This document shows positions 55,791-64,000 of a DNA stretch of 64,000 bases, in pieces. The notes under the pieces were generated by a model, which was not told the DNA's origin, made no database searches, and worked only from the letters and a program-made list of their open reading frames with translations. Both the position numbers and the translations under genes were made by a program. Position 1 is the first letter of the stretch, and each line of letters opens with the position of its first letter. Origin of the DNA: a bacterium HR30 (GTDB taxonomy: Bacteria > Desulfobacterota > Binatia > HRBIN30); contig BEIG01000001.1 of NCBI GenBank assembly GCA_002898795.1, forward strand, positions 192 through 64,191, given 5' to 3'.

Positions 55791-56278
55791 CCATGCCTCC
55801 GTCGCGTGCTTCCGGCGTCGCGCAAAACCGTTCTCGTGTCAACGCGGAGAATCCTCGAACCGCCGCCCAGCGCCTGGACGGTACCGGCACAAATCAACGA
55901 ACGTTTTCCCAAGCCAATCCAGGTGCGGAAATCGAAAGTCGGAACCTTGCAAAGGCAAGATTCCATCGAAGGCTGCATGTCGAAGTCGCACTTGCGCAAG
56001 CCCACTAGAAGCGACACCGTTGGGTTGCGAACTCAGCGCACCCGTAGCCTGCCCTTTCAAAAATTGTTGTCGCGACATCTCCCTCGGGCGGCAGGACTGT
56101 CCGCACCTGCACGCGCCTGCGCGCTTACCAGCTCGCGCTCGGGTGGGCCTTCGAGACCACGCAATGGCGCCTGCGTGTCTGCCGGATGGCAGCAGCACCG
56201 ATGCACCAACGCAGTGCTACTGCCGCCGCAGCCAGTGTGACCACCAGCCCGCACCGGGCCTACGCCGTGCAAAGCCGT

Positions 56279-57613
56279 CTAGGGCGTCGGGCTCGCACTC
56301 GCTTCCGGCGAGTCGTGCAGCGCCCTTCGATCGGTGCTTGGCGCTCTGGGGTTGCTTTCGTCCGCGCTCTTCCCCCCACCCGCGGGTTTTCCAGAAGGCC
56401 CGAACTCCTGAAACAGCTTCACCACCAGCGACGCTACCTCCCCCGGCTTGGCCGTGAGCACCTCCCGCCTCAATTGCTCGAAGCGGCGCGGCGACAAACG
56501 ATGGGCCAGCTCTATCCGAGCTCTCAAATCCCGAACGGTGTCGTCTCTTACGAACCTCACAAACTCGAGTTCCTTTTCGCTCATCTCGCCCAACTTGGGG
56601 CCATACAACCGAGCAAGGTCGAAGTACGTGTCGTAATCGGCGTAGAATTTCGCTTTGATGAGCAACCACACTAGCTCATTTTCCGGATCGGCCAGCAGAT
56701 TCCGCCACGCCCTGCTGCAAGCCTGATCCCCAGGTTCCTCGCCAAAACAACGGGCAGCCATGTAATAGGACAACGCTAACGGAGCCGCCAGGTGGGGGCT
56801 ACGTCTTTCCACTTCTCTTGTAAAGGCGTCCCGAAACGCTCCGCACTTTTCTACGGTGCTGTCAGCAAGGCAAGAGGCTAACTTTTCGCCCACTTCAGGG
56901 CCAAGCTCGCTCAACGATCCTCTGGGAATTCGCAAGCTAAAGGGGCGCGGGGTTAGAGCTTGCCCGTTCTCGACCCAGGCCTTCCTTGCCATGTCGGCCC
57001 AGACTACCTGTTCGCGAAGCAACTCCACAAGTCCCGGGTCGCCATGTTCTTTCGCCTCTTCCCATTGGCGCACCGTTTCGTTCTGCAAGAGTTCGAACCG
57101 TTCGGGGTCCAGGCGGGCCGCAACCTCGAAGACGTACCTAGCTCTCACCGGGTCATTACCGCCCACCTGCGCCCGCCGCACCGCCCGGAGGTAGCTCCAA
57201 AAGATCTCCGTTTGCCGCTTCTTCAAAAGAGCCAAGTAACGTTCCCCCATCTGTCTTAGCTTGTCCTTCCAAACCTCTTGCTCCTTCATATCCCATTCGG
57301 GTGGGCTGTCGAAAAAGGGGTAATGATAGATGGCTCGCTGGATGGCATCGTAATGGTCCAAGGCACAATACGGGAAGAGCGCCCCGGAGCGCGTGCACAT
57401 TTCGAACTGGAGCCGGTACACCACCAGTGCCGAAACAAAGCCATAGCCGGACAGTCCATGGAGCGGGCGCTCCTGCAGCGGCTTTTTCAGCCATCGTTCG
57501 AGGAGCTTCACGGAGAAGTCAACGCTGGAATCATCGCTCGCCCCACCTCGTTGAGGACCGCCCGCAAGTCCTGCAACCGCTACCAGCAACAGGGGCAAAA
57601 GCAAGCGCCTCAT
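56279..57613 (-). CDS. Secreted hypothetical protein
   Basis: Signal peptide MRRLLLPLLLVAVAGLAGG and a strong AGGAGGTG RBS. No known domain. Confidence 0.55.
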   Translation of the reverse strand: MRRLLLPLLLVAVAGLAGGPQRGGASDDSSVDFSVKLLERWLKKPLQERPLHGLSGYGFVSALVVYRLQFEMCTRSGALFPYCALDHYDAIQRAIYHYPFFDSPPEWDMKEQEVWKDKLRQMGERYLALLKKRQTEIFWSYLRAVRRAQVGGNDPVRARYVFEVAARLDPERFELLQNETVRQWEEAKEHGDPGLVELLREQVVWADMARKAWVENGQALTPRPFSLRIPRGSLSELGPEVGEKLASCLADSTVEKCGAFRDAFTREVERRSPHLAAPLALSYYMAARCFGEEPGDQACSRAWRNLLADPENELVWLLIKAKFYADYDTYFDLARLYGPKLGEMSEKELEFVRFVRDDTVRDLRARIELAHRLSPRRFEQLRREVLTAKPGEVASLVVKLFQEFGPSGKPAGGGKSADESNPRAPSTDRRALHDSPEASASPTP

Positions 57614-57675
57614 TGTCGTGTGCACCTCCTGGAGACTACCACACTCCCTCGTCACTGCGCATAGTACAACTGCAC

Positions 57676-58083
57676 CTAGTCCCACCGGCAACCAGGGCAC
57701 TCAGCACGCGTACCCTTCAGCACCCATTTCGGCACCCACGTCTTCCCATATGGCGGGCCCCAATCGTATTTGAAATAGTCCGCCTCGTTGCCCGGGGCCG
57801 GCAGGGATGCCGCCGTCAAACTGCGCACCGATATAAAATGCGTCGGCCCTTTCGGGTTCCCGATACCCGTTCTCAGGAACTCCTCGGCCAAGGCGAAATC
57901 CTCCGCGGTCGGAACGAGCTTCGGGTTCGGGCTCCTGCAGCCAACGTAAGCGCTGCACACATCCGCTACACTGGTAGTTCCCCTCCGTGCCATGCGGTTG
58001 AGCACCGTTTGCAAGATCGCTCGCCGCTCCTCCGCGCGGCACTGCTGCGAGCCACATTCGTTGGCCAGCAACCTCCCCAACAT
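57676..58083 (-). CDS. Putative cell-wall hydrolase (SleB/CwlJ Hydrolase_2-like)
   Basis: AILQTVLNRM and GPTHF resemble the Hydrolase_2 LNR and GATHY motifs. Weak support. Confidence 0.45.
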   Translation of the reverse strand: MLGRLLANECGSQQCRAEERRAILQTVLNRMARRGTTSVADVCSAYVGCRSPNPKLVPTAEDFALAEEFLRTGIGNPKGPTHFISVRSLTAASLPAPGNEADYFKYDWGPPYGKTWVPKWVLKGTRAECPGCRWD

Positions 58084-58440
58084 TTTTTCTCGTCCGTGTC
58101 CAACCCCGTCCCGGGCGACGCATCGCTCATCGTATCCGTGCGCTGCGCCACCTCCATTGCAGCGGAACCAAGGCATTATGTGCCAGCGCGCTAGCAGCCC
58201 GGCGACGGCGGGAATCGCTACATCCTAACGCGTCTTCCCACCGCCACCCTCTGCCTGCGCTCGGTCTTTGCTCGCTGGAGCGCCCCGGGGAGTAGCGTCG
58301 TCTCCACCAGGCCCCTCCGAGCCTCCACCCTCCCACCCAACACCCAACTCGGAAAACTCTCTCCCCCGCCGCCGCTCGGTCAAGGCATCAACACAGGCCC
58401 ACCTACCTCCAACAGCCGGTAGCCCAAGGCGCGGGCCTAC

Positions 58441-59060
58441 CTAGCTAGTCGGGGTCGGAGAAGGCTCGGGCCCACCGAGCCGGAACGGCGGGTAGCCCAA
58501 GGCGCGCTTGATTTCCTCCCACTCCACCAACTTCAGACGACCTCGAGCGTCGATAAAAAGGTACCCCGTGTCCCCACGACAGGGACCTACCGTGCCAAGC
58601 CTGTAGTACATCTCTCGCTGCAGCGTCTTGGGTCCCTCCAGCACCTCGTACCCTTTCGGAGCTTCCCCCTCCAGCACAAACTCGCCGCCCCACCCCGGAC
58701 GGTACCGTAACCGCACGGTGCTGGCAAAAAAAACCGGCCTGACCTTTCTGATCTGAGGCGCAGCACCGTACTCGTGTTTGCGGTATGCAAAGGCTCGGGA
58801 TGGGGATCGGCCGGGTCGTATGGGTAGAACATCAAAACCGAAAGGCCCGACGGGCGGGCATCTTCCCAGAGCTTGCGAACGCCCCTCACCTCCAGCACGA
58901 TCGTCAGGTCGTCGAGCTGCTTCACCGTGCAGTAGTAGGGAGGGATGCAACTCCCCACCGGCAACAGCACCGCCAAAAGCAACCCTACGAGCCCGAGGTG
59001 CCCACGCTTACCACGGTTACGGTCCAGCCACACGGCGAAACTCCCAGTACAACCGTTCAA
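58441..59060 (-). pseudogene. Lipoprotein gene split into two frames at an A8/T8 homopolymer (frameshifted or phase-variable)
   Basis: The N-terminal frame (lipobox LLPVGSC) runs from 59060 to about 58740. The C-terminal frame runs from about 58735 to 58441. The two frames meet at the T8 tract (plus-strand A8 at 58726-58733). Peptide repeats STVLRLRSERSGRFF and STVRLRYRPGWGGEF flank the tract. Confidence 0.5.
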
Positions 59061-59349
59061 TCGTACGCGCGTCTAGCCCGGTCTCTCGGTCCAAGAATGG
59101 CGCGCGCTTTAACACGAAATAATCCCCCACCACGGCAGCTTGCTGTTCGAAGTTGAGATCCCAAAAACTTCCGCGGAACGATGGCCCAACGACGTAGGGA
59201 TCGCTCCCCGTCAACCACGCCCTGAGGTGCAGCCAGGAGCCGCGGAAGTTGTCGAGCAAGCCGTGCTGTCGCTGCCAAATGTACACGCCCTCGTGCACGA
59301 GTAAACTCAAGCGTCGTACCGGCGTCCGCCCTGAGTATTCCGACGTCAC
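59017..59349 (-). CDS. Doubtful small ORF (GTG start, no RBS)
   Basis: Open frame only. It overlaps the lipoprotein start, and the tandem repeats abut its start codon. Confidence 0.2.
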   Translation of the reverse strand: MTSEYSGRTPVRRLSLLVHEGVYIWQRQHGLLDNFRGSWLHLRAWLTGSDPYVVGPSFRGSFWDLNFEQQAAVVGDYFVLKRAPFLDRETGLDARTIERLYWEFRRVAGP

Positions 59350-59350
59350 A

Positions 59351-59382
59351 TTGATTTCGTAATTTGTTGATTTCGTAATTTG
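59351..59382. repeat. Exact 16-bp AT-rich tandem direct repeat, 2 copies (TTGATTTCGTAATTTG)
   Basis: Two perfect adjacent copies in a low-GC intergenic stretch upstream of the frameshifted lipoprotein gene. Confidence 0.85.
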
Positions 59383-59707
59383 ACCTCACCTGCCCGTCGG
59401 CAAATCTTTCGCCGAAGAAACCTTCGTCTAGCTTTACCCTTTCCCAATCGACACATTCCCCACGGATTCCTCTAGAGCTTTCCGCTCCTCTTCCGTCAGC
59501 GGCCGCGGCTTCGGATCAACCCCCTGCTGACACCTTTCTGGATCCCGCGCGGGGCAGTCGCCACCGGCTCTGCTTCCCAGCCTTGCCTCCACGGTGAAGT
59601 CTGCACGCGCTGCGCTCTGTGCTGTTACTCAAGAAATCTCTAGCGCGAAGACGCTTCCGTGCTGTCCCATCGTTTCGTTTACGGATTTCCCACCGGTGTG
59701 CCCGATC

Positions 59708-60103
59708 TCATCGGCCAAAGCGCCTCTGAACGATTGTGTAGTCCTTTAGGTCGATCGTGTAATGCACCCCTCCACCGAAGGTTAACGGCGTCCTCCCTTC
59801 AAAGATGTCGACTTCAACTTCGTCACCCTTTTTTCTGTAAAGCACACCATGGACCCGCGTCGCTAGCTCTGGAGCTGAGTAACCTCGGTCCCAATGCTTG
59901 TTCAACCGTTGGTAGTCCGTCATCGCCACCAGTAACGCAGCAGCGATTTGCGCCGAGAGAATGCCCGAGTCGCTCACGCGCTCTTCTAGCTGAGCTTGCG
60001 AGACCCGCGGATCCAGAAGCAACACAGCGAGCAGGGTGGTGCATAGGGTGATCACCCCCGCTAACCTTGCCAAGCACCTTCGACCGACTTCATATACCCT
60101 CAT
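59708..60103 (-). CDS. Small secreted or membrane-anchored hypothetical protein
   Basis: N-terminal hydrophobic segment LAGVITLCTTLLAVLLL. Confidence 0.45.
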   Translation of the reverse strand: MRVYEVGRRCLARLAGVITLCTTLLAVLLLDPRVSQAQLEERVSDSGILSAQIAAALLVAMTDYQRLNKHWDRGYSAPELATRVHGVLYRKKGDEVEVDIFEGRTPLTFGGGVHYTIDLKDYTIVQRRFGR

Positions 60104-60897
60104 CTGATCGGCACCCTCCCAACGTAGCGCCCCAGCGTGAACTTGGGCTCGGGCAGTTCACCTGCAGGATAAAACCGCAAATTTCCACCCGGGGTTCCAA
60201 GGTAAGACCCGAGAAAGCCTGGATACCTCGCTCCGAGCTGGTTCGTCGCCCACACATCCGCCGGGGAAAAATACTCGAAGCCCGTTCTTGCACCGTGAGT
60301 GTGCCAAACCGCTAAGGGCCGTGCACCCTCTGGGAGGAACGCCAGCGCATCGTAAGGCGATGGACCCGCGCACACGGCGGCTCCGCCACACGGAGCCCCG
60401 AGGACGCCGGTAGTCGAGGAAATGCCCTCAGGCCCTTCAAAGATGATTCCTAAGTATTCCGTGTCGCTTTGAACCGAGGGCGGGTTGTGCAAGGCAACAG
60501 CATCTCTAGCTACTTCATCGACCTTGGCCACAGTCGGATGATTGGGATCGATGAGGCTACCGCTGGAAGCAACATCCGTCCTGCGTCCTCCGCCCAACGT
60601 CACTTCGCCGTCCGCTCTGCCACCTCCGTTGCCCGGGCCTTTCTGCGCCTCCCGTGCCATTTCGCTGCCAACGCCGTTAGCACGGGTACCACGGGCACCA
60701 CGGCTGCCACCCGCAGTGAACACAGCTCCCGGAGAGAACGGTTCCCCGCGGGCGCGCCTGCGTTCACCGATCGCGCGTGCTTGCGGCCAAGCGTATGGAG
60801 TGCGGTAGCGGTGCTCCCGCAAGCCCGGCCGCAAGGCAGGGGCTGAAACGGGCCACAGGGGCATGGGTGGTACGAATGGGCGCGCGGTGCGTACCAT
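60100..60897 (-). CDS. Protein with a C-terminal JAB/MPN-like (DUF4329-type) domain and a Gly/Arg-rich N-terminal region
   Basis: C-terminal motif WHTHGARTGFEYFSPAD (H-x-H...S-x-x-D). The N-terminal 100 aa are low-complexity, so the true start is uncertain. Confidence 0.45.
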   Translation of the reverse strand: MVRTARPFVPPMPLWPVSAPALRPGLREHRYRTPYAWPQARAIGERRRARGEPFSPGAVFTAGGSRGARGTRANGVGSEMAREAQKGPGNGGGRADGEVTLGGGRRTDVASSGSLIDPNHPTVAKVDEVARDAVALHNPPSVQSDTEYLGIIFEGPEGISSTTGVLGAPCGGAAVCAGPSPYDALAFLPEGARPLAVWHTHGARTGFEYFSPADVWATNQLGARYPGFLGSYLGTPGGNLRFYPAGELPEPKFTLGRYVGRVPIR

Positions 60898-61097
60898 GGC
60901 AGGGCTTAGCAGCGCGGCCGCACGCTATGGCGGCGGCTGAAGCGGCTGTGCTCCTGCCCGAGGTGATCCACACCATCCTGCTGTTACCCCCAACCAAGTT
61001 CAGCGGCGCACGAACTCATGGCGCCTGCGTGTCCGCGCAAACTAGGACGGCGGTGCCACTATGCTCCCACCACGTTGGATGTAGGCATCACGCCCTC

Positions 61098-62180
61098 CTA
61101 CCGGCCGTTGGCGCCGCGCTCCGCTAGCGCTGCATCGTCGGGTTTAGCGTGCTGCGGCGTCGCCTCACTCCCTCTGGGCCCATTCCCCCTTCTCTCCACC
61201 TTCGCACTCCCTGTGCCTGCAGTACGCCTCTTTCTCTTGTGCTGCTCCTCCTCTCCCAACAAAATCTCCCGCTCGATACCTCGCGCCCGGATCTGCTTGA
61301 TCTCGTACGCCTTGGCTTCCGCGTTCTCTGAAGGGGTGTATCCGGTTCCGTAGGTTGCTCGAGGCGTGACAAAGTATCCGTGTTCGTCCGTCTGGTACCG
61401 CTCCTCTTCTCGCTGTGGATCTTCGTCGTACTGGCATAACCACCAGCAGTGCAAGTTGACCTCGAGGATCTCGAAAGGGTCCTTCACCAGCACCCTCGTG
61501 CTGTCCTGGTCCACATTGAAGTCCTCGATCACGACGCGAACCTTGTTCGGATAATACCGCTTCTCCCCACGCCTCGCGCTCAATTCGTTAATCCTGACGC
61601 ACCAGTTCCGCACCGACAGCACAACCCTCTCCACCATCCACTCCTTTTCCGGCGACGGCGGATCGATCGGCGGCTCCTCGCGCGTGCAACGCCAAGGCAC
61701 CCTCACCGTGAACGACACCTTCTCCCGGCCCTGCAGTAAGCTGTAAGATTTTCGATAGAGTTTGTCCCTATCATCGCTAAGCCCCTCCAGAAGATGCGCG
61801 GCCACAAGGGCGTGCCCACGCCACACGACTAGGTAGTAATACCTATCCTCCAGCTCGCCCGGCCTGCACGTTCCAAGGCAGGGTCCGCAGATTGCCGCGT
61901 AACGCACGCGCGCATAGAACACACCCACCCTCGCAGGATCCTCCACCGCCTCCGCCACCAGCGGCACGCCGACACGGATAAGGTCGCACGGGGGGGAGCC
62001 TCCAACCCACCGCGCCTCCCGACAAAGGTCACGTTCCAGAGCGCTGCGCAACAGCGGCACATGCTGCTCTAACCGCCCAAGCTCTGCCCCAACAACCATT
62101 GCCGGCCACGCCCCGAGCCACCACGCCAGTAACCCCACTACGGCCAGGTGCTTGCTGCCCGTTCTGCTCGGAGACATCAT
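61098..62180 (-). CDS. Secreted hypothetical protein
   Basis: Signal peptide LAVVGLLAWWLGAWPAMVVGA and a charged C-terminal tail. Confidence 0.5.
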   Translation of the reverse strand: MMSPSRTGSKHLAVVGLLAWWLGAWPAMVVGAELGRLEQHVPLLRSALERDLCREARWVGGSPPCDLIRVGVPLVAEAVEDPARVGVFYARVRYAAICGPCLGTCRPGELEDRYYYLVVWRGHALVAAHLLEGLSDDRDKLYRKSYSLLQGREKVSFTVRVPWRCTREEPPIDPPSPEKEWMVERVVLSVRNWCVRINELSARRGEKRYYPNKVRVVIEDFNVDQDSTRVLVKDPFEILEVNLHCWWLCQYDEDPQREEERYQTDEHGYFVTPRATYGTGYTPSENAEAKAYEIKQIRARGIEREILLGEEEQHKRKRRTAGTGSAKVERRGNGPRGSEATPQHAKPDDAALAERGANGR

Positions 62181-62487
62181 CTCAGCCTCCCAGCAAAGAA
62201 GTCGTGCGCGAACCCCTTGTCAACCGGAACTTTTACCAGCTTCCCAGCGTCTAACGCCCTCTGCCATGATGGCGGTAGGGGTTGTGTCTTGAGGTTAAAA
62301 AACACCGCCTTCTGCGTACAACACACGCTCGTGCTCTGCCCCCTCGACACCTCCAACCATGCTAGAAGACTCTGCTGGTAGCCCTTTCGGATCGTCGGAT
62401 CGGTGCCGATGAAGTTTCCACGAGAGCGGCGGTGTTCGTTCCACGGTCTGTTACCCTCACGCCCCAACGCGCCACTGCGTGCACCCC

Positions 62488-63189
62488 TCATCCCTCGCGT
62501 ACGCTCTGAACGTGTTGCCGGGTCCCGCAAGGCACCTGGCGCAGCCTCTCGAGGTCTCCCTCCCATTCCAACTTCGTCTCCTCGGAATACTTGTCCACCG
62601 ATACCCGCAGCTTCACGGCGCCCTGTGCATCCGCGTACTCCCACTGAAAGACGTAGTACCAGTCCTCCTCCGCCACCTCCCCGCCACCAGGGCGCATCTG
62701 CGACGCCAGATAACGCTGCGTAACAACACCCCAGTCTTCCTCCGGCACCAACTTCGGCCCCTGAAATGCATCCGGGTTGAAGCAAAGCCGCCTGGCCGAT
62801 CGCTTGAGCTCCAAGATCGCCCGTTGCAAAGCTCGCCCCGGGCTGCATGGCCGCGGGTATCGTGACACTCTCCAAAGACTTCCCTCGTGCGCAAAATCCA
62901 CTTCTCGATAGTAGCGGTCCACCAACACCCAGAGCTTTACTCTCCCCCGCGGATCGGAGTACTCCCACTCGAACAAATACGCCCAGTCGCACTCCCGTGC
63001 CAATTTCGGCCCGCGAAATATGTTTAGGTCTACCGCGCGCTCCTCCGCCACTCGCCGCGCCTCCGCAATCGCTAGCTTCTCCGCTTCCGCTCTTGTGGCG
63101 GGGTAAAGAACGTAAAACAAAATGTTCAGCCAGCGAAAGCCTACGGCAAGGAAAAGGAACGCCGCGGCAATCTTCATCGCTCGCCACAT
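62488..63189 (-). CDS. Membrane-anchored or secreted protein with two internal FRGPKL...WEY-D modules (paralog A)
   Basis: N-terminal TM KIAAAFLFLAVGF. Two ~55-aa repeats: NIFRGPKLARECDWAYLFEWEYSDPRGRVKLWVLVD and AFQGPKLVPEED...YVFQWEYADAQGAVKLRVSVD. Confidence 0.6.
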   Translation of the reverse strand: MWRAMKIAAAFLFLAVGFRWLNILFYVLYPATRAEAEKLAIAEARRVAEERAVDLNIFRGPKLARECDWAYLFEWEYSDPRGRVKLWVLVDRYYREVDFAHEGSLWRVSRYPRPCSPGRALQRAILELKRSARRLCFNPDAFQGPKLVPEEDWGVVTQRYLASQMRPGGGEVAEEDWYYVFQWEYADAQGAVKLRVSVDKYSEETKLEWEGDLERLRQVPCGTRQHVQSVREG

Positions 63190-63358
63190 GGTCCCGAACC
63201 TCGCCCCGCCCCTGTTGGGCTTGCGCGCTCCTCGATCATCACGTCAGCAACTGACCCCACTGGCCAGCTTGGCACCCCTGACAGGCTAAGCCACCAGCCT
63301 TTCACCCAGACGCGCCCCACTCGTGCAACCCCTTCCCGATCGTTCGCTCTCAAGGGAT

Positions 63359-63960
63359 TCACCACGAGCTGCAGGGCACCCGGCGCAGCCTGTCGAGGTC
63401 TCCCTCCCATTCCACCGCGGTCTCCTCGGAGTACTTGTCCAGCGATAACCGCAGCTTCACGGCACCCTGTGCATCCACGTACTCCCACTGGAAAACGTAG
63501 TTCAAGTCGTCCTCTTCCACCAGCTTCGGCCCCCGAAATCTACGTGGATCGAAGGAAAGCCGCATCGCTGCCAGCTTGAAATGCACCCTTGCCAGCTCCT
63601 CCGCTCGTTCGAGCCAAACAGGCGGTATCCGTGTGAGTCTGTCCCAGTCGCCTGGGAACGAAGCCTCGGTCCACCGGTCTTTCTTGCCAACTAAAACTTG
63701 CAGCTCGGCTCTACCCCAGGTGTCCGAATACTCCCAAACGAACATGTAATTCTCGGGATCGTCCTGCACCAACTTGGGCCCGCGAAACATGCTTAGGTCA
63801 AATCCCCCCCCCAACCTGCCGCTCGATTTGCTTGGTCGATCGCTAGCTTCTCGGCTTCCTCCTTCGTAAGCGGGTAAAGGAAGTCGTGTACAGTGTTGAC
63901 CCCGTGAAAGGCTAGCCCAAGCAAAAGCAACACTGCCACAACCTTCATTGCCCGGCGCAT
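63359..63960 (-). pseudogene. Paralog B of the FRGPKL/WEY-D protein, interrupted by a G9 homopolymer frameshift
   Basis: N-terminal frame MRRAMKVVAVLLLLGLAF...AIDQANRAAGW. The G9 tract is plus-strand C9 at 63803-63811. The downstream frame reads GGFDLSMFRGPKLVQDD...YVFQWEYVDAQGAVKLRLSLD. Ten G would restore a single ORF. Confidence 0.55.
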
Positions 63961-64000
63961 AGTCTCGAACCTCACGGCGGCACAGGCACCGTGCCACGGA

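Follow-up and report, generated by a model that had tools for sequence, protein, structure and literature searches.

Near the end of a 64,000-nt stretch of bacterium HR30 DNA (GenBank assembly GCA_002898795.1, contig BEIG01000001.1, positions 192 to 64,191; hereafter the window), a run of nine guanines (G9) splits one copy of a duplicated minus-strand gene into two reading frames. Does this tract reflect a real mutation, an error in the assembled sequence, a reversible switch, or a recoding site? We refer to the split gene as paralog B and to its intact neighbor, HRbin30_00064, as paralog A. The DNA comes from a metagenome-assembled genome (MAG) that was recovered from a 65 °C bioreactor and belongs to the order HRBin30 of the Binatota. 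The answer that we favor, with confidence about evenly balanced, is a real slippage frameshift in B, a redundant paralog of a candidate immunity protein.

The frame break in paralog B

The run lies at 63804-63812 (C9 on the plus strand, G9 on the coding minus strand), where it separates the two frames of B; no other homopolymer in the window is as long. An earlier reading of the DNA, made from the letters without database searches (the sequence-only reading), had correctly recognized the tract but placed it one base off, at 63803-63811. On the minus strand, the zero frame of B opens with ATG at 63960, begins MRRAMKVVAVLLLLGLAF and reads MRRAMKVV...AIDQANRAAGWGGDLT, ending in AIDQANRAAGWGGDLT at a TAA stop at 63793-63795, four codons past the tract. 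The -1 frame reads GGGFDLSMFRGPKLVQDD... and ...GGGFDLSMFRGPKL... and runs to a stop at 63359-63361. A single open reading frame (ORF) is restored by G10 (200 aa) or G7 (199 aa), while G9 and G8 leave the two parts out of frame. The tract is located at codon 50 of 200.

The product of a G10 form of B aligns with paralog A from end to end and continuously across the tract (46% identity, E 2e-54). This bears out three claims of the sequence-only reading, namely that the gene is duplicated, that both frames of B are collinear with A, and that ten guanines would give one ORF. Its claim that the tract is the break point also holds. Upstream of G9, the GC contents at codon positions 1, 2 and 3 in the N-terminal frame are 0.69, 0.35 and 0.61, and downstream of G9 those in the other frame are 0.62, 0.41 and 0.73, the coding signature of the genome; the coding frame judged by this composition thus swaps at the tract. 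Homologs require the N-terminal frame as far as the residues RAA and the other frame from the residues FD, so that the frameshift must fall within 14 nt, a stretch that includes all nine guanines.

The part of B upstream of the tract (63813-63960, minus strand; codons 1-49) encodes an N-terminal hydrophobic helix and helix alpha-1 and shares 49% aa identity with the matching part of A. Its ATG (63958-63960) is preceded by GAGG (63970-63973) at a spacing of 9 nt. The part downstream (63359-63803, minus strand; FDLSMFRGPKL...VPCSSW) encodes two tandem alpha/beta domains in the -1 frame and carries no second lesion. Because B keeps a coding signature apart from this single lesion, its inactivation would be recent. 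In GenBank, B is annotated only as HRbin30_00066, the 143-aa Met-initiated portion of the downstream part (P0002), to which our sequence is identical; paralog A is likewise 100% identical to HRbin30_00064, on a contig of 91,819 bp.

The occurrence of a G9 tract is within chance expectation, as dinucleotide shuffles yield 1.1 G9 or C9 runs per 64 kb. The non-random point is that the frame break coincides with the tract. The extra residue that G10 would introduce is missing from 13 of 13 aligned relatives, while G7 gives the length typical of the family, suggesting that the tract had already drifted.

A membrane-anchored protein family beside a colicin-M-like domain

Paralog A (P0001; 62488-63189, minus strand) encodes 233 aa with a membrane helix and two cystatin/PepSY-like domains. 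In its AlphaFold model (mean predicted local distance difference test score, pLDDT, of 80), a helix at residues 2-28 is followed twice by a helix and four strands, the second helix of the model spanning residues 33-50. The earlier description of the duplicated gene as encoding a secreted protein is therefore imprecise: A and B are better described as an N-terminal membrane helix joined to periplasmic-type alpha/beta domain structure, encoded downstream of a colicin-M-like module. We note that A carries a 24-residue insertion, GVVTQRYLASQMRPGGGEVAEEDW, in its second domain (residues ~155-178, window 62650-62730), which B and the relative P0003 lack and which is partly of low confidence in the model (pLDDT < 50 at residues 165-174).

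Neither A nor B received a Pfam, PHROG or NCBIfam assignment. A word-indexed protein search with them returned only two HR30 entries, and a scan of their alignment against genome_contigs and metagenome_contigs returned no relatives. An exhaustive HMMER search retrieved 24 relatives. Most of these are about 110 aa long and consist of an N-terminal hydrophobic helix and one domain of about 80 aa with the motif EA..IA...A..L.FD...F.GPEL...Y.F.W.Y.D..G.V...V.VD..G....W.GDLERLR; two such domains in tandem are found in A, B, P0003 and P0004. The other family genes examined are all single ORFs without a frameshift site, and in none of them is the tract present at the equivalent position.

The gene upstream of B is HRbin30_00068, most of which lies outside the window; its 3′ end (..RGTVPVPP, stop TGA at 63972-63974) occupies 63972-64000 on the minus strand. 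We retrieved the product of this gene (P0044, 255 aa, same contig) in a profile search with domain X, a conserved C-terminal segment of about 120-135 aa that we compared across three other loci (L001, L082 and L083). As P0044 ends in FRGTVPVPP, B lies immediately downstream of a domain-X gene: on the minus strand, ..RGTVPVPP and its stop are followed by 11 nt with GAGG and then by the ATG of B. This arrangement recurs. A gene of the A/B family lies 2-40 nt downstream of domain X in six loci (L001, L082, L083, L084, L086 and the window), with a gap of 2-10 nt in L001, L082 and L083. In five more distant domain-X proteins of other bacteria (P0049, P0057, P0061, P0062 and P0064), an Rhs-associated core (TIGR03696, above cut-off) stands directly N-terminal to domain X; no Rhs core was found in P0044. 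In Rhs systems, the core is followed by a variable toxin domain and then by the gene that confers immunity to it.

In the predicted structure of P0044, domain X, at about residues 118-255, is modeled with confidence (pLDDT 78-98) and the N-terminal 117 residues are not. The domain-X model matches only bacteriocins of the colicin M (ColM) family, and its predicted fold is of the ColM type. A profile comparison of domain X with colicin M, whose sequence we verified against PDB, aligned 50 columns around the region of the catalytic motif (E 2.3e-4), pairing DKYDF with DKFNF of P0044. Sequence-family searches were negative: the Pfam Colicin_M model (PF14859) gave no match with any of 24 domain-X members at E up to 10, a PDB profile search with domain X did not find ColM, and the YebF model PF13995 gave no sequence match to A or B. 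We take the catalytic motif of ColM to be DxYDx5HR. The segment aligned to it is DKFNFDMKPWK in P0044, with the family consensus DxYNFDxKPW, in which the first D and the Y/F are retained, N replaces the second D in most members, and HR is absent. Because the motif is only partly kept, any enzymatic activity of domain X is putative.

The ColM immunity protein Cmi is 117 aa long and combines a single membrane helix with a small domain in the periplasm (Ghequire et al. 2018, PMC5821083). The model of A shows the layout of Cmi and YebF, a membrane helix plus small periplasmic-type alpha/beta domains, and the gene lies beside a predicted ColM-type toxin. Domain X and the A/B family thus each independently resemble one half of a ColM/Cmi pair. 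Judging from the models, domain X of HRbin30_00068 seems to represent a new family of ColM-like toxins whose partners resemble Cmi. On the strength of their helix, their alpha/beta domains and their place downstream of the colicin-M-like module, B and A appear to be Cmi-like candidate immunity proteins; the toxin and the immunity function are both putative.

Copies of these genes appear to decay and recombine. Nucleotide identity between A and B is 86% over the C-terminal 46 aligned codons, versus 54-66% in the remainder, which indicates recent gene conversion between the C-terminal regions of the two paralogs; the putative conversion tract (repeat D1, 151 nt, 87%) lies at 62527-62677 in A and 63371-63521 in B, both on the minus strand. 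P0008 (L085 971-1504), which comes from another metagenome, is frameshifted by a 25-nt deletion relative to the 89%-identical P0004 (L083 1074-1655) and is, by its sequence, an independent case of decay in the family, not at a homopolymer. In P0025 and P0026 (L082 2-409), the C-terminal half of an immunity-type domain (..WECDLERLR) runs directly into domain X, and these proteins are apparently recombinant chimeras of adjacent cassettes.

Explanations for the out-of-frame tract

B is not the only gene in the window that is broken at a homopolymer. As the sequence-only reading had stated, a second tract-associated frameshift exists. It lies about 5 kb away: a lipoprotein-like gene at 58441-59060 (minus strand) is broken at T8 (A8 on the plus strand, 58726-58733), the second-longest homopolymer of the window. 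The run separates two overlapping minus-strand frames, the coding signature swaps there, and T9 (one added nucleotide) or T6 restores about 205 aa. In a related Binatia MAG, an intact lipoprotein of 185 aa (L086 7559-8116) is collinear with the T9-repaired product in one unbroken match. Directly upstream of the T8 gene lies a 110-aa gene (59017-59349, minus strand), and as the same gene pair is found in L086 (7135-8116, 52% identity), the two genes form a second two-gene cassette. G9 and T8 are the only runs of at least 8 nt in the window, and each is exactly one base short of in-frame.

We hypothesize that replication slippage left the real G tract of B 1 nt short (or 2 nt long) in the sequenced population. 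B and then A would be tandem paralogs of membrane-anchored, periplasm-facing, Cmi-like candidate immunity proteins, with B 11 nt downstream of the colicin-M-like module HRbin30_00068 in an island of toxin-like/immunity-like pairs. With translation stopping four codons past the tract, only a 55-aa stub would be made, and B would represent a recently inactivated allele in a redundant array in which A is still intact. G9 would be inherently unstable, so that reversion is possible, and the tract would have arisen by chance in a linker rich in Gly (GWGG(G)), not as an evolved switch. Among the observations that point to slippage are the short-read platform, a backbone of about 8 kb that is free of frameshifts, the restriction of the tract to B among ten family genes, and the presence of broken family copies elsewhere. 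We infer that the G9 length is real and that gene B is off.

The alternative that survives best, though we think it unlikely, is that the true sequences are G10 and T9 and that the consensus lost one base at each of the two longest homopolymers through low coverage, PCR stutter or the difficulty of Illumina sequencing with G tracts. The sequence-only reading had considered long-read homopolymer error to be as good an explanation as slipped-strand phase variation. That form of the argument is ruled out, as the libraries behind HR30, built with the KAPA Hyper Prep kit, were read on an Illumina MiSeq, and SPAdes 3.9.0 was used to assemble seven samples together (Kato et al. 2018, PMC5877337); the platform was not long-read, 454 or Ion Torrent. 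Any artefact is therefore limited to a low-coverage short-read error or to PCR slippage. For such an error there is some room. The coverage of HR30 is only 3.87x and 4.34x (~8x) in two replicate libraries of one sample and essentially none in the other five (PMC5877337), Illumina indel error is higher at long homopolymers and GC-rich motifs (PMC4719071), and Illumina sequencing struggles through G-tract templates, such that database tract lengths can misstate those of cultures (PMC9187656). The coincidence that both long runs fall one base short also fits a lost base, and a broken immunity-like gene beside an intact toxin domain is functionally odd.

Several points argue against this explanation. 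Relative to the closest available genome (L002), about 8 kb of backbone adjacent to the island contains no frameshift, and runs of 6-7 nt are in frame. A true G10 would add a residue found in no relative. Per-read indel rates of Illumina data at runs of 8-9 nt are low, so that two independent sites would hardly both have an incorrect consensus except at a local depth of 2-3 reads.

Our search for an independent assembly from which to read the tract length returned nothing: exact-protein look-ups of P0001, P0002, P0044 and a 212-aa ORF gave no record, and an exact DNA pattern permitting G6-G12 had no match in metagenome_contigs.

We consider it improbable that B is an evolved contingency locus, in which reversible slippage would switch the gene on and off to vary the immunity or surface profile of the cell, with the T8 gene behaving likewise. 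The slipped-strand phase variation proposed by the sequence-only reading has attractions. The tract is slippable, occurs near the start of the ORF (at codon 50 of 200) where the membrane anchor gives way to the domains, and would set B to ON as G10 or G7 and to OFF as G9 or G8; the AlphaFold model of A predicts an envelope location for the product; another envelope gene broken at a tract is found at a distance of 5 kb; and high-GC Bifidobacterium offers a documented case of intragenic G-tract ON/OFF switching, in which a signal-peptide ORF is separated from the remainder of a surface protein (PMC9187656). The comparative data, however, leave the proposal unsupported. In paralog A and eight other family genes (including P0003), homopolymers do not exceed 7 nt, and the equivalent site has none. 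In 73 kb of related Binatia loci, there is no run of at least 8 nt, and the window itself holds none beyond G9 and T8. TRF found no contingency-type tandem repeats in the window, no variants in tract length were found among the public protein and contig collections searched, and the presence of the tract is no more than dinucleotide shuffles predict. Switching off immunity beside an intact toxin would also be hard to justify as adaptive.

The broader form of this proposal, in which G9 and T8 are both genuine reversible switches that vary which island immunity proteins an uncultivated thermophilic Binatota population expresses, we regard as still more doubtful. If true, switching at G9 and T8 would amount to phase-variable immunity and a stochastic form of kin discrimination; phase-variable immunity is not known to have been described for Rhs- or ColM-type systems.

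Programmed recoding, whereby full-length B would be made from G9 by a -1 ribosomal frameshift on G GGG GGG or by a polymerase-added G (and the T8 product likewise on U UUU UUG), is very improbable: both sites have the form X XXY YYZ when read in the zero frame (as any homopolymer of at least 7 nt trivially does), both need a -1 shift or one added nucleotide and the zero-frame stop is close by in B, but there is no stable downstream RNA structure (fold z-scores of -0.26, +1.02 and -0.82 versus shuffles), no Shine-Dalgarno-like stimulator is visible upstream, neither the G9 site nor the T8 run is conserved in any homolog, and productive transcriptional slippage is documented for A or T runs, typically of at least 9 nt (PMC1088944), and not for G9 or T8.

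The accessory island and known systems

Synteny with L002, whose SDR gene is 94% identical in aa sequence, stops at window position 55844, directly after the SDR gene. From there to the end of the window and beyond (55845-64000) extends an accessory island whose genes all lie on the minus strand and mostly lack a family assignment, and the proteins encoded at 56-64 kb were found neither in L002 nor in 79 other loci fetched by the same SDR query (L002-L081). The island holds three sets of neighboring genes: domain X followed by B and A, a DUF4329 gene with a small gene, and the 110-aa gene with the T8-broken lipoprotein gene. A similar array is found in L086, where the 110-aa/lipoprotein pair recurs, a DUF4329 gene is followed by an unrelated small gene, and a domain-X gene is followed by two A/B-family paralogs. 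In L084, two family members lie near a domain-X gene. In both frameshifts, the gene affected is the immunity-like one, placed second in a two-gene cassette, and an accessory island is a setting in which genes are expected to decay.

The DUF4329 gene (60100-60897, minus strand) is the only island gene with a family hit in scans of Pfam, PHROGs and NCBIfam. Its protein contains WHTHGARTGFEYFSPAD, a spacing that we presume to be reminiscent of JAB/MPN metalloprotease motifs. The 5′ ~200 nt of this ORF (60631-60837) repeat the 5′ leader of HRbin30_00068 with 88% aa identity, and a shorter echo of the leader, VAQRTDTMSDAS, occurs at 58116-58169. As the translation of the leader is Arg-rich and modeled as disordered, the shared segment probably does not act as protein but as a repeated leader, either non-coding or used in recombination. 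No Rhs core motif was recognizable in three frames of the repeated leader at 60550-61110, and neither a full-length rhs gene nor a delivery system was seen within the window, in which the largest ORFs were not checked for RHS repeats.

At L083 1973-2983, 300 nt separate a cassette consisting of a domain-X gene and the two-domain P0004 from a major capsid gene of phage type (PF19821, phrog_3437) downstream of it, and some cassettes may travel on phages. This capsid gene had suggested that the island of the window could be a prophage; we rejected that idea, since none of the island proteins matches PHROGs.

The frameshift itself is ordinary, another homopolymer-associated break in a low-coverage MAG, and listing B among phase-variable genes needs read evidence. 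The main gain is in annotation: two hypothetical secreted proteins and their upstream neighbor, none of which has a Pfam assignment, can now be described as Cmi-like immunity paralogs and a candidate toxin of the colicin-M-like kind, which in other bacteria is joined to Rhs cores. Confirmation would widen the range of ColM-like toxins that target lipid II, and of the membrane-anchored proteins that give immunity to them, to Rhs-type delivery, to Binatota and to hot-spring communities.

Compared with poly-G phase variation, as described for the pilus genes of Bifidobacterium breve (PMC9187656) and for Neisseria and Campylobacter, B is similar in that a G tract in the 5′ part of an envelope gene divides an export or anchor segment from the rest and in that tract length sets the frame. 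However, the tracts in those systems are conserved across strains or species, occur at several loci per genome and have demonstrated length variation (PMC9187656), whereas the HR30 tract is found in one paralog only, with no variation observed, in a gene that is immunity-like and not an adhesin or pilin gene.

The DUF3289/DUF943 effector-immunity pair of the type VI secretion system includes a structural homolog of ColM (PMC11148199). As in that pair, the ColM-like fold of domain X is seen by structure only and the immunity-like gene is adjacent; unlike it, domain X has no DUF3289 match and A and B have no DUF943 match in Pfam scans, and no link to a type VI secretion system was seen here.

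Relative to ColM and Cmi themselves, the HR30 proteins are not matched by PF14859 and PF13995, and domain X of this family keeps the catalytic motif only in part. Domain X is attached to Rhs cores and not to the receptor-binding and translocation domains of bacteriocins, the immunity-like gene has the same orientation as the toxin-like one and is often present in two copies, or carries an internal duplication like that of A and B, and the hosts are Binatota and other environmental bacteria.

The locus also resembles C-terminal toxin/immunity cassettes of Rhs polymorphic toxins with orphan arrays. HRbin30_00068 is without an Rhs core and the shared leader encodes no recognizable core motif; domain X comes right after an Rhs-associated core in five homologs and the small downstream gene is kept as its partner in six loci. 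As in Rhs arrays, several unrelated two-gene cassettes are gathered in one variable island that is missing from the closest genome, the modules have a common repeated 5′ leader, and chimeric and broken copies occur.
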